The position numbers and the translations under genes are program-made. A stretch of DNA of 64,000 bases, taken from positions 271,856-335,855 of the forward strand of contig CAZRVK010000001.1 of the NCBI GenBank assembly GCA_964603585.1. Reading direction: 5' to 3'. Each line of letters starts with the position of its first letter. Within the stretch, counting starts at the first letter, position 1. The notes below the pieces were generated by a model, which was given only the letters and a program-made list of their open reading frames with translations, did no database searches and was not told the DNA's origin. Source of the stretch: an uncultured Planctomycetales bacterium (lineage in GTDB: Bacteria > Omnitrophota > Gorgyraeia > Gygaellales > Profunditerraquicolaceae). Shown in pieces: positions 24,825 through 41,125 of the stretch.

Positions 24825-26033
24825 TTATATTGTTAAATTATGCCCCATCTTTTCTTTTTTAGTCTTTAAATACCTTAAGTTTGATGGATTCGGCGGGATC
24901 TCTAAAGGGACCCTCTCTACTACACGTAAACCATAACCTTCCAAACCAACGATCTTACAAGGATTGTTCGTTAACAGACGAATATTCTTTAACCCCAGAT
25001 CCACCAGTATCTGTGCACCAATACCATAATCTCTCAAATCAGGTGCAAACCCCAAAGCCTGATTGGCCTCAACCGTATCCATCCCTTTATCCTGCAAGCT
25101 ATAAGCCCTGATCTTCTCTGTTAAGCCAATTCCCCGCCCTTCCTGATTCATATATAAAATGACTCCGCGTCCTTCTTTCTCAATAACCTGCATAGCCTTT
25201 TGCAGCTGACGGCCGCAATCACACCTCAATGAATTAAAAACATCACCCGTTAAACACTCGGAATGCACCCTAACCAAAACACCTTCTTGAGTCAGGTCCC
25301 CCATGGTCAGGACAGTGTGGACTTGAGTATTAATCAAATCCTTATACAGGATCAAATTAAAAGTCCCATATTCGGTCGGTAATGTGGTGGACGCTACTTT
25401 CTCAACCAGTTTTTCCAGCCGGCGGCGGTATTCGATCAGACTTTCAATCGAACAAATCTTAAGCTTATGCTGCCTGGAAAACTCGATCAATTGAGGCAGC
25501 CGTGCCATCGTACCATCATCATTCATGATCTCACAAATGACACCCGCAGGATAAAGACCCGCTAAACGCATTAGATCTACAGTTGCTTCGGTATGGCCTG
25601 CCCTTACCAAGACACCGCCATTACGCGCCTTTAGAGGAAAAGTATGCCCGGGACGGATCAAATCCTCCGGTTTTGCTTGAGGGCTGATCAAAACTTCAAT
25701 CGTGCGTGCGCGGTCATACGCAGAGATCCCTGTAGTTGTACCTAATGCGGCATCTACCGAAATCATCCAAGCGGTAGAAAACTGGTCTTTCTTACGCCAG
25801 GAATGCTTGTCCGTAACCATTGGATCCAAATCCAAGCTTCTTAACCTTGCCTCTTCCATAGGGACACAAATAAGCCCGCGTCCAAATTTAGCCATGAAAT
25901 TTATATCTTCCGGGCGCGCAAAAGAAGCCGCCATCAACAAATCTCCTTCATTTTCGCGGCCTTCATCATCCACAACCACTACCATACGGCCATGCTTTAA
26001 ATCTTCTAAGATCTCCGGAATAGTATTGAACAT
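24825..26033 (-). CDS. ribBA: Bifunctional 3,4-dihydroxy-2-butanone-4-phosphate synthase / GTP cyclohydrolase II
   Basis: DHBP synthase ([14 protein letters not shown]) plus GTP cyclohydrolase II (CxCxxC..). Start chosen at the MFNTIPEIL Met because it has the better RBS (AAGGAAAG). The listed ORF begins 9 codons upstream at 26060. Confidence 0.85.
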
Positions 26034-26103
26034 GCTCTTTCCTTTGTTTTGTCCGATCATAAAACACTATCTGCTCAATAAACACCTGCGTACAACAATC
26101 AAT

Positions 26104-26378
26104 AAAAAAGCCCGAACATAATCTTCGGGCATACGCAGCTGGTTATCTTCTCTCATCTGGACTTTATCGCAAAAAGCATCAAAGCTTGTTCCAGGCGCTA
26201 TTTAAGGCGCCGGAGTTTCGCTTTTTGCTCAACTCCCGGCTTTATTTGATACGCCGGAATTTCGCTTTTTGCTCAACCATCGGCTCTGGAATATTACCAG
26301 ATCAATCCGCCAATAAAATATCGGAGGATTCGCGGGCTTAACCGCCGGTCAGGAATTACACCTGCCCCGAAGACTAAC
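26104..26378 (-). promoter_or_regulatory. FMN riboswitch (RFN element) with its terminator, in the leader of the rib operon
   Basis: Minus strand reads ..UCUUCGGGGCAGGUGUAAUUCCUGACCGGCGGUUAAGCCCGCGA...GGUAAUAUUCCAGAGCCGAUGG...AAAGUCCAGAUGAGAGAAG, then a hairpin (GCCCGAAGAUUAUGUUCGGGC) and a U-tract. The conserved P1-P5 cores match the RFN consensus. A large insertion lies in the variable P6 region. Confidence 0.85.
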
Positions 26379-26385
26379 TTTATTT

Positions 26386-39066: not shown

Positions 39067-40008
39067 CTAAAGGCCAAAATCCTTTATTTTGAAAATTGAT
39101 TCCAGTTTTACCCCAACTTTAGCTAAATTATCCTCGGCTCCCTCATCCCGGTCGACAATCACTATTGCCCGGCAAACTTCAACCCCAAGTTCATCCATTA
39201 CCAACTTTGCCTCAATTAAAGCCTTGCCGGTAGTTGCAACATCATCAACCAAGACCACCCGGCTGTTCTTTTTTAACTCCGGGCCTTCCACCTGGCGCTG
39301 CATCCCATGCCCTTTAGCGGCTTTACGAACAATGAAAGTCTTGAGTGGAAGTTTATGAATATGGCTAAGACAGGCAATTGAGCCGGTAATCGGGTCAGCG
39401 CCCAAAGTCGGGCCTCCAACAGCATCGATCTCCAAGCCTTCTATAGACCGCAAAATAATACTTGCGACTAAAAATGCCCCTTCCGGAGTAAGAGTAATGA
39501 TCCGGCCATCCAGGTAATATTTACTGGTTTTACCTGAAGAAAGGCGGAAATCACCGATCTTTAAAGCATCTTTTTTCAATAAAACCATTAGCTGTTTCTT
39601 TAAAGAAACAGTTTCTTCTACAAGGGGAGAACATTTCATGTCAATCAACCTTTCTATCTCAACAAATAATTTATTCAAATCAAAAGGCTTCATAATGTAG
39701 GTATCCGCTCCTACAACCCTGCCGACGATCCTATCCACATCCGTACTTTTAGCAGTCAACATGATTACCGGGGTATCTGCAAGAGCCTTATCCTTGCGAA
39801 TCTGGCGGCACACCTCTTCCCCAAACATACCCGGCAGCATTAAATCCAGGATTATAAGGTCCGGTTTATGGCTTTTTGCCTTTTCCAACCCATCGATACC
39901 ATCATTAGCAACAATCACATCATATTCTTTTTTCTCAAGGCGAAGCATCAGTATCTTACATAAAGAAACTTCGTCATCGACAATCAATATTTTCTTTTTT
40001 GTCCCCAT
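39067..40008 (-). CDS. pyrE: Receiver domain fused to orotate phosphoribosyltransferase (REC-OPRTase)
   Basis: Start chosen at MGTKKKILIVDDE, which has a strong RBS (GGAAGGAGAGGG). The 49-codon upstream extension in the listed ORF is translation of the tandem repeats. The C-terminal half has OPRTase motifs (IGDFRLSSGKTSKYYLD; VVLVDDVATTGKAL). Confidence 0.75.
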   Translation of the reverse strand: MGTKKKILIVDDEVSLCKILMLRLEKKEYDVIVANDGIDGLEKAKSHKPDLIILDLMLPGMFGEEVCRQIRKDKALADTPVIMLTAKSTDVDRIVGRVVGADTYIMKPFDLNKLFVEIERLIDMKCSPLVEETVSLKKQLMVLLKKDALKIGDFRLSSGKTSKYYLDGRIITLTPEGAFLVASIILRSIEGLEIDAVGGPTLGADPITGSIACLSHIHKLPLKTFIVRKAAKGHGMQRQVEGPELKKNSRVVLVDDVATTGKALIEAKLVMDELGVEVCRAIVIVDRDEGAEDNLAKVGVKLESIFKIKDFGL

Positions 40009-40021
40009 CACCCTCTCCTTC

Positions 40022-40150
40022 CACAGAAAGTGGAACACCCGGCCATCCGATAAGCCGGGGTGTGAACACAGAAAGTGGAACACCCGGCCATCCGATAAGC
40101 CGGGGTGTGAACACAGAAAGTGGAACACCCGGCCATCCGATAAGCCAGTT
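40022..40150. repeat. Tandem direct repeat, 45-bp unit in ~2.8 copies. Each unit carries a GC-rich inverted repeat (ACACCCGGC..GCCGGGGTGT)
   Basis: Seen in sequence: cacagaaagtggaacacccggccatccgataagccggggtgtgaa repeated at 40022, 40067 and 40112. Contiguous with no spacers. Immediately upstream of the REC-OPRTase RBS. Confidence 0.85.
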
Positions 40151-40240
40151 AACACCTCTTCAAGACTATATCAGAATTTTACCACTAAAAAGATACACAG
40201 GCAATACTTTATGATTGTTTCGTTGTCATGCACACATGAT

Positions 40241-40294
40241 CTTGTAGGGGATGGTCGAGATCATCCCTAATGTTGGGGCGGTCCCGACCGCCCC
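40241..40294. repeat. Second copy of the cttgtaGGGGATGGTC..GA.CATCCC motif, followed by a perfect 20-bp palindrome GGGGCGGTCccGACCGCCCC
   Basis: Seen in sequence in the divergent intergenic region between the REC-OPRTase and comF genes. Confidence 0.7.
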
Positions 40295-40339
40295 CTACCA
40301 AAATATAATTAATGACCGCTATTTTTATTATGATTAATT

Positions 40340-40368
40340 TTGACAAAATATAGTTTAGTTGTTATTAT
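40340..40368 (+). promoter_or_regulatory. Consensus sigma70 promoter TTGACA-17-TATTAT, 7 nt upstream of the comF ATG (leaderless arrangement)
   Basis: Seen in sequence. The listed ORF's TTG start is the -35 box. Confidence 0.55.
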
Positions 40369-40375
40369 ATGGGGT

Positions 40376-41125
40376 ATGTTAGGCGGCCTGATTAAGGGCT
40401 TGATAGAGATAATCTATCCTAAAAATTGCATTATATGCAAAAACAGCGTAAAAACCAAAGCAGGGATAGATGATTTTATCTGCCTCAAATGCTGGGGAAA
40501 AATAAAAAAGAATCTCCCCCCATTTTGCCTTTGCTGCGGGAGACATTTAGAAAAAAACAACCCCGCAAAGAATATCTGTCCTGCTTGCATCAAAACACCG
40601 TTACATTTTGACCGGGCCTTCAGCCCCTGTATTTACGAAGAAATTATACGTAACCTGATCCATGAATTTAAATACTTTGGCCGTGATTACCTGGGAAAAA
40701 CCTTAAGCAAAATAATGATCGAATTTATCCGTGAATATGATCTGCCGATGCAATATATCGATACCGTCATCCCTATTCCCTTGCACAAAACAAAACTAAG
40801 AGAAAGGGAATTCAACCAGGCACAAGTCTTAAGTGGAAATATCGCCCGGGAATTCGACAAAAAACATTTACTTAATGCCTTAAAACGCTGCCGACCGACA
40901 CAACGCCAAGCAGAACTAAAAAACAGCCGCCGTTTCGAAAACATCAATAATAGTTTTTCTTTTGACCCGAGACATTCAGTACAAGGAGAAAACGTCCTGT
41001 TAGTAGACGATATTTTAACTACCGGCGCGACCGCATCAGAAGCTGCGCGAATATTAAAAAATGCCGGGGCCAATATAGTATTTGTCATGACATTGGCAAG
41101 AACCGACCTAAAACACCTGACATGA
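40376..41125 (+). CDS. comF: ComF family protein (ComFC-like, double zinc ribbon plus phosphoribosyltransferase fold)
   Basis: N-terminal Cys pairs (YPKNCIICKN..CLKCW..CLCCG..CPAC) and a PRT motif (VLLVDDILTTGATA). Confidence 0.75.
   Translation: MLGGLIKGLIEIIYPKNCIICKNSVKTKAGIDDFICLKCWGKIKKNLPPFCLCCGRHLEKNNPAKNICPACIKTPLHFDRAFSPCIYEEIIRNLIHEFKYFGRDYLGKTLSKIMIEFIREYDLPMQYIDTVIPIPLHKTKLREREFNQAQVLSGNIAREFDKKHLLNALKRCRPTQRQAELKNSRRFENINNSFSFDPRHSVQGENVLLVDDILTTGATASEAARILKNAGANIVFVMTLARTDLKHLT

Follow-up and report, generated by a model that had tools for sequence, protein, structure and literature searches.

A gene on the reverse strand of the window (the whole 64-kb stretch of DNA that was analysed) encodes a receiver domain fused to orotate phosphoribosyltransferase, and is referred to here as REC-pyrE. 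Such fusions are rare. Only about nine to 10 clusters with both domains were found among 5.8 billion protein clusters, and a literature search found no paper on a REC-OPRTase fusion. Relatives of the whole protein are 61-66% identical, none in the databases being closer than 66% protein identity, and the one named member of their clusters is Candidatus Omnitrophota. Stand-alone PyrE proteins share about 75% identity with the PyrE half. The domain combination suggests that this enzyme of pyrimidine synthesis may be under phosphorylation control.

The neighbours of REC-pyrE in the window are comF, lptF/G, an HI0933-like gene and a maf/M48 gene. The order of comF (divergent), REC-pyrE, the HI0933-like gene and maf/M48 is kept in the relatives, and all of the loci fetched (L004-L006, L010-L015) are syntenic. 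The comF gene lies on the forward strand and looks leaderless from its sequence, in which a promoter of the form TTGACA-17-TATTAT is followed after 7 nt by the ATG at 40376. The TTG at 40340 that the list of open reading frames gave as the start of comF is actually the -35 hexamer of this promoter; the recorded protein starts at the ATG at 40376, and no record of a comF protein with the TTG start was found.

Immediately upstream of REC-pyrE lies a tandem array, and the features first needed are as follows.

39067-40008, reverse strand: REC-pyrE, receiver domain (PF00072) fused to orotate phosphoribosyltransferase (TIGR00336, 145 bits), 313 aa
40009-40021, reverse strand: Shine-Dalgarno region GAAGGAGAGGGUG (core AAGGAG, 40020-40015), followed at once by the ATG at 40008-40006
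40022-40146, reverse strand: tandem array, 2.78 copies of a 45-bp unit, 100% identical, unit GGCTTATCGGATGGCCGGGTGTTCCACTTTCTGTGTTCACACCCC

The array is the outstanding tandem repeat of the window. Tandem Repeats Finder, run on the 64 kb, reported a period of 45, 2.8 copies, 100% matches, no indels and a score of 250 at 40022-40146, and the runner-up array scored 59. The block of 125 bp consists of two full units and 35 bp of a further one (2 x 45 + 35), arranged head to tail without spacers. A separate repeat search also returned three contiguous copies, the third identical over its first 35 nt. The 29-nt hairpin core occurred twice at up to three mismatches against none expected from 100 shuffles. 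By hand count, the GC content of the unit is 58%, compared with 43% for the window. The existence of a hairpin-forming 45-bp repeat in 2.8 copies upstream of the REC-OPRTase gene, as the initial annotation had described it, is thus confirmed, and its copies are perfect. The same annotation had excluded a CRISPR, rightly, since the period equals the unit length of 45 bp and the contiguous copies leave no room for spacers.

Support for the repeat and the start of the protein

Three contigs from Logan, whose assemblies are built on a de Bruijn graph with k=31, bear on the question of whether the repeat is an assembly artefact. On the pyrE side, a contig from SRR15237810 (L001), which encodes an identical protein of 313 aa, starts exactly 30 nt inside the array. 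On the comF side, contigs from SRR15237810 and SRR15237811 (L002 and L003) likewise start exactly 30 nt inside it. The 30-mers at the edges of a real array have two continuations, namely exit from the array or entry into the next unit, which is why the contigs break at these points. As the breaks occur at the array edges in two independent assemblies and runs, the reads must hold at least two copies of the unit. The repetition is therefore real, with at least two copies in the reads, and the figure of 2.8 is that of the assembled sequence. In practical terms, the repeat is a predictable assembly break point.

The position directly upstream of a strong ribosome-binding site was borne out as well. 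The gap from the end of the array (40022) to the ATG at 40008 is 13 nt long (GAAGGAGAGGGTG) and contains a good Shine-Dalgarno sequence. SD-like 5-mers precede 15 of the 58 gene-like open reading frames of the window, against a background of 4%, so that Shine-Dalgarno-led translation is ordinary for this organism.

It might be argued that the copy number or the array itself was produced in assembly, or that the repeats are a true N-terminal extension of the protein. At 125 bp the array is near the read length and the k-mer sizes of short-read assemblers, its count is not readable from the graph, and the frame is open from a GTG at 40155. However, the two assemblies branch exactly where a real repeat of at least two copies predicts, and the GTG has zero spacing from its purine tract. 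In all homologues the start corresponds to the ATG at 40008, three to five codons before the ILIVDDE motif, which speaks against the 49-codon extension that the open frame had seemed to offer. The unit's five open frames, joined as a concatenated peptide to catch mis-called copies, matched no protein at E<=10 among the 5.8 billion clusters. Five of the six frames of the unit are open and its length is a multiple of 3, and an open frame through the array is therefore expected by chance. Taken together, the chance that the array is an artefact or a protein extension is slim, and the array is non-coding as had been proposed. The warning that it would mislead automated annotation was not realized: the frame is open back to the GTG at 40155, yet the deposited protein (NCBI, Logan) is the one of 313 aa from 40008. 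The practical use of these findings is mainly in annotation: REC-pyrE should be taken to start at the ATG at 40008, with no protein called from the frame that stays open across the repeat.

Promoter and comparison with orthologous loci

Upstream of the array, two further features complete the region.

40147-40175, reverse strand: 5' portion of the leader, 29 nt of unique sequence (TCTGATATAGTCTTGAAGAGGTGTTAACT) that separate the array from the -10 box; contains the SD-like GAAGAGGTG
40176-40204, reverse strand: promoter, with the -35 hexamer TTGCCT (40204-40199), a 17-nt spacer and the extended -10 element TGgTAAAAT (40184-40176)

The promoter site at 40204-40176 is the only sigma-70-like site on the reverse strand near REC-pyrE. 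For comparison we used eight orthologous loci with DNA from Candidatus Omnitrophota relatives, in which the proteins are 61-66% identical and the gene order is the same. The eight loci have in common a promoter of the form TTGAAA-17-TGGTAAAAT. A conserved block TTGAAA-17-T(A/G)TGGTAAA(A/C)T, found in L004, L006, L010/L011, L012, L013, L014 and L005, aligns with 40204-40176 of the window. Grouped by the spacing between -10 box and ATG, the loci are as follows.

Leaderless or almost leaderless: L004 and L006 (6 nt each), L010/L011 and L014 (9 nt each), L012 (10 nt)
Short leader that has a Shine-Dalgarno sequence of its own: L005 (30 nt), L013 (33 nt)
Long leader in which the array lies: window (167 nt, -10 box at 40181-40176)

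From the conserved promoter, transcription is predicted to start at about 40169-40171, which would place the beginning of the array about 24 nt into a 5' UTR of about 161 nt. The array is very probably transcribed within the 5' UTR because the conserved promoter lies upstream of it. The suggestion that the repeats belong to the 5' leader therefore very probably holds, given that the only promoter-like site on the strand aligns with the promoter of all the orthologous loci.

Conservation of the repeat, in contrast, found no support among the relatives. The 45-bp unit, or any sequence similar to it, is absent from all eight orthologous loci, whose leaders are 0-33 nt long. Since the orthologues are leaderless or have short leaders and lack the unit, the array together with its Shine-Dalgarno sequence is, as far as the aligned sequences indicate, a lineage-specific insertion. 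The spacer between comF and REC-pyrE is 72-195 nt in the relatives with both genes called in full and 367 nt in the window. Of this extra length, part is the 167-nt leader, part the two REP-like palindromes with GTAG heads (40241-40296) and part other sequence. In those relatives where the spacer is most compact, the two genes lie about 72-85 bp apart.

As a side observation, comF and REC-pyrE form a compact divergent promoter pair in the relatives, each -10 box lying 6-10 nt from its ATG, so that both genes are leaderless there.

Folding of the leader RNA

The following elements were predicted by folding.

40129-40148, reverse strand: weak hairpin 1 in the 5'-truncated copy, CUGGCU/GGCCGG, 6 bp with two G-U pairs, -9.3 kcal/mol
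40080-40108, reverse strand: full hairpin 2, ACACCCCGGC-UUAUCGGAUG-GCCGGGUGU, about -16 kcal/mol, with one bulged C and GGA in the loop
40035-40063, reverse strand: full hairpin 3, identical to hairpin 2, -16.0 kcal/mol
40025-40032, reverse strand: CACUUUCU, the pyrimidine tract in the last unit, for which pairing with AGAGGGUG (40016-40009) is predicted

The array had been expected to give three consecutive stable hairpins. The prediction is instead two strong hairpins (-16.0 kcal/mol each) and one weak one (-9.3 kcal/mol), with an equally stable competing register. On the reverse strand, both arms (ACACCCCGGC/GCCGGGTGT) of the stem of 9-10 bp with its 10-nt loop are present in only two copies, and the 5'-most copy has a stem of only 6 bp because its left arm is missing. 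In the competing register, the right arm of one unit pairs with the left arm of the next around a 16-nt loop, at -17.9 kcal/mol per hairpin. With units that do not differ from one another, this second register is as favourable as the first. The predicted global minimum of -69.3 kcal/mol is a long-range nested fold that accounts for 0.0001 of the ensemble, the ensemble centroid is nearly unstructured, and, measured against dinucleotide shuffles, the fold has a z-score of only -2.6 to -2.8. As the copies are identical, they carry no covariation signal.

At the 3' edge of the array, the local helix between CACUUUCU and AGAGGGUG, with a predicted energy of -9.5 kcal/mol, would hide part of the Shine-Dalgarno sequence. 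Without the repeat, 3.6 kcal/mol is predicted to be needed to open the Shine-Dalgarno sequence and AUG; with 0.78 to 6.78 copies, the predicted figure is 6.0-7.2 kcal/mol. Copy number was considered as a translation rheostat and rejected, because the predicted accessibility of the ribosome-binding site is nearly flat over this range of copies; the array is thus no obvious expression rheostat.

Regulatory readings of the array

The initial annotation had offered an attenuator or protein-binding array, if the repeats were transcribed, and a direct-repeat operator array, if they were not. Neither suggestion gained support. For the first, no terminator-like site and no Rfam match were found, the element is missing from all eight orthologous loci, and the copies are identical. 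For the second, there is no adjacent regulator gene and the element is not conserved in the relatives.

Among specific RNA-binding proteins, CsrA/Rsm is suggested by the GGA motifs. Classical CsrA targets combine multiple GGA hairpins with a GGA in the Shine-Dalgarno sequence, and the layout seen here matches that general picture. The loop UUAUCGGAUG is present in each of the three copies, with its GGA unpaired in the local hairpin register, and the Shine-Dalgarno sequence GAAGGAGAGGG also carries a GGA. A dimeric protein could then bridge the sites and block the ribosome. The leader thus shares with CsrA/RsmA leaders and CsrB/RsmZ decoys the repeated GGA-loop hairpins and a GGA overlapping the Shine-Dalgarno sequence. 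It differs from them, however, in that the loops do not have the A(N)GGA context and the relatives do not share the element; the identity of its copies suggests recent duplication and not a selected multi-site platform, and gives no sign of selection on structure. In addition, by our own estimate a 10-nt loop contains a GGA by chance in about 12% of cases, the middle GGA is predicted to be almost fully paired in the equilibrium ensemble, and no orthologue has such a leader. Genes for csrA, fliW, hfq and pyrR were not detected in the 64-kb window (best csrA tblastn hit, E=0.5). We consider CsrA-type control of this leader quite improbable.

It was also considered that the array acts on the DNA level, as an operator or roadblock in which, downstream of the promoter, a dimeric repressor would bind the 9-bp inverted repeat of each unit. 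The two to three direct copies of the inverted repeat between the -10 box and the ATG would suit such a role. However, the 45-bp spacing corresponds to 4.3 helical turns and places the sites out of phase, and 9-bp arms that are 10 bp apart are atypical of operators. No regulator gene is found among the comF, lptF/G, HI0933-like and maf/M48 neighbours, and the relatives do not conserve the element. An operator is very improbable on these grounds.

The function of the downstream gene in pyrimidine biosynthesis brings to mind a leader-peptide or UTP-sensitive attenuator like that of E. coli pyrBI/pyrE, in which translation of an upstream ORF would be coupled to hairpin formation. A candidate ORF exists.

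40008-40136, reverse strand: upstream ORF of 42 codons, probably incidental, with an in-frame AUG in every unit; its UGA overlaps the main AUG as UGAUG

U-rich tracts (CACUUUCUGUGUU) also follow each hairpin. Like the pyrimidine attenuators (the PyrR-binding leader RF00515 and E. coli pyrBI/pyrE), the locus combines a structured leader, a pyrimidine gene and an upstream ORF that ends at the pyrE start; it differs from them in having no Rfam match, no PyrR-binding loop consensus and no U-run terminator, and no pyrR is found in the window. No terminator-like sites were found in 39800-40600, where the sequence after the stem reads UCCACUUU and the canonical order of a hairpin followed by a U-run is lacking. 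No Shine-Dalgarno sequence precedes any AUG of the upstream ORF, and the ORF is probably incidental for this reason; its being open is in any case what the length and frames of the unit predict by chance. The orthologues also lack the element. Attenuation of this kind is the least credible of the explanations considered and is extremely improbable.

Searches of the Rfam database are in line with these results. The array matches none of the known cis-regulatory RNA families of Rfam 15, including riboswitches, the PyrR-binding leader and T-box. A scan of 39500-40800 at E<=10 returned only noise, the best overlap being sX5 with 14.3 bits (E=6.4) against a gathering score of 50. The scan of the whole window at gathering thresholds found only an FMN riboswitch and a tRNA, both away from the array.

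Searches for the unit elsewhere and mobile elements

Another possibility is that the block represents a single insertion of a small non-autonomous dispersed element (BOX-like, MITE or an REP/IS200-type hairpin) whose internal module was iterated, and that other copies lie elsewhere in the genome. Several features would fit. The block has a non-integer number of copies, sharp boundaries and flanks unrelated to the unit; the unit is GC-rich relative to its host (58% versus 43%), and its hairpin is stable and imperfect, with a bulged base; and the same intergenic region gained two GTAG-headed REP-like palindromes (40241-40296) that are absent in the relatives. There is also a precedent in the pneumococcal BOX element, which has the structure boxA-(boxB)n-boxC with a variable number of tandem boxB modules, forms stem-loops when transcribed and can alter the expression of neighbouring genes (Croucher et al. 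2011, PMC3049150). The array resembles BOX as a short tandem module with predicted stem-loops, an intergenic or UTR site and a possible effect on the downstream gene (PMC3049150). However, BOX is dispersed and multi-copy and has boxA and boxC ends and inverted ends, whereas the array is known from one locus and none of these features was detected. BOX may thus be regarded as the closest analogy in kind, but not in sequence. REP, BIME and REPIN elements resemble the array as GC-rich imperfect palindromes in intergenic DNA; the 45-bp unit differs from them in that it lacks a GTAG head, is repeated head to tail rather than in alternating orientation and has no other copy in 64 kb.

The searches for further copies, on which this possibility depends, were negative throughout. 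No other copy was found in the 64-kb window, which is the part of its 512-kb contig that was covered, by a pattern search allowing three mismatches, by blastn-short or by a scan for perfect hairpins. In the GTDB representative genomes, a set that excludes the window's own genome, a 20-mer core of the unit had three matches, in Celeribacter, a Methylomirabilota MAG and Pseudoxanthomonas. These are chance matches in unrelated GC-rich genomes: by our own estimate, equal base frequencies would yield about one match, and GC-rich genomes a larger number. No matches were obtained in JGI metagenomes (with an exact 22-mer or with a pattern with a free loop) or in IMG/VR viral contigs, and none in plasmids and phages by blastn in distant mode. 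Copies are also missing from the translated ORFs searched. The ends of the array, GGCTTATC... and ...TTTCTGTG, are not inverted complements of each other, so the block has no terminal inverted repeats, and its flanks hold no significant direct repeat that could be a target-site duplication. On balance, judged from the 64 kb and the collections searched, a dispersed element is an unlikely explanation, although one that deserves some weight.

The REP-like palindromes are an observation in their own right. They lie about 95 bp from the array at 40241-40296, and a GTAG palindrome recurs at 19591-19616. The sequence GTAGGGGATGGTC(T/G)(C/A)GA(C/T)CATCCC is found at 19591 and 40241, and GTAGGGGGCGGTCGGGACCGCCCC at 40296-40273 on the reverse strand. 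Between the divergent promoters of comF and REC-pyrE, the two palindromes at 40241-40296 point towards each other in the manner of a REPIN doublet; they are absent from the orthologous loci. Their presence in the same intergenic region as the array indicates that this spacer is a sink for small repeats.

Origin and probable effect of the array

The explanation that we favor, with a probability of roughly 60%, is that the array is a private, recent minisatellite in the 5' UTR with incidental, constitutive effects on translation. The array would be a VNTR-like minisatellite of a GC-rich hairpin unit, recently formed or homogenised between the conserved promoter and the start of REC-pyrE. Transcription would start near 40169-40171, the array would make up most of the 5' UTR of about 161 nt, and the gene would now rely on the Shine-Dalgarno sequence at the insertion's 3' edge. 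The leader RNA may fold into interchangeable hairpin registers, while the CACUUUCU tract of the last unit is predicted to pair with the Shine-Dalgarno sequence and to raise the opening cost from about 3.6 to 6-7 kcal/mol. In these models, the effect is likely to be modest and constitutive, consisting of damped translation and altered mRNA stability. A switch controlled by a ligand or a protein is not indicated.

As to the origin of the array, no degenerate fourth copy or target duplication of significance was found in the flanks (451, 731 and 953 of 2000 shuffles scored as well), and neither flank showed significant similarity to the unit or to the other flank. The value of 2.78 copies does not resemble a simple local duplication, because that would give 2.0 or 3.0 copies and microhomology. 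Two possibilities are that an older array was trimmed in its terminal copy and then homogenised, or that the block arrived already repetitive. A unit of 58% GC in a window of 43% GC fits either foreign origin or selection for structure.

We regard the array as one more case of a familiar type of element, the tandem repeat or minisatellite within a UTR, and found no evidence for a new regulatory class. It is like the bacterial VNTRs and minisatellites in its contiguous head-to-tail copies, a unit of tens of bp, near-perfect identity (2.78 copies with 100% matches and no indels), its restriction to one lineage and its needing no dedicated protein. The hallmark of a VNTR is copy-number polymorphism between strains. 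The array differs in being a 2.78-copy block with unrelated flanks that is not the product of simple local duplication.

A more far-reaching variant of this history is that a leaderless gene very recently acquired a long leader and a Shine-Dalgarno sequence through insertion of a self-iterating hairpin module, and that this leader is now a newly evolved control region, either a contingency-type VNTR that tunes REC-PyrE output or a multi-site platform for a GGA-binding protein. We regard such a control region as improbable; if it were true, the locus would offer a snapshot of the birth of a regulatory 5' UTR. On the favored reading as a minisatellite, its significance would lie in the change of architecture: small GC-rich repeats appear to have stretched a compact divergent pair of leaderless promoters to 367 bp, and initiation at a Shine-Dalgarno sequence to have taken the place of leaderless initiation.

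Other repeats in the window

Two further duplications were noted in the window. The FMN riboswitch (RF00050, 67.8 bits) lies at 26252-26379 on the reverse strand, upstream of a gene at 24825-26060 on the same strand. A 44-bp sequence is duplicated in tandem (two copies, 84% identity) at 26190-26277 and overlaps the 3' end of the FMN aptamer and the expression platform; it is the second tandem duplication of roughly 45 bp in a leader within the same window. Elsewhere, a stretch of 29 bp, consisting of the 3' 21 nt of tRNA-Pro and 8 nt downstream, occurs with 100% identity at 19224-19252 and 19392-19420, 168 bp apart. The tRNA-Pro(CGG) gene is at 19400-19476 on the reverse strand, and another apparent tRNA-like fragment lies between the two 29-bp copies at about 19300-19350. 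Judging from this arrangement, the duplication could be an att-type remnant of an integrative element or debris of a tRNA gene.
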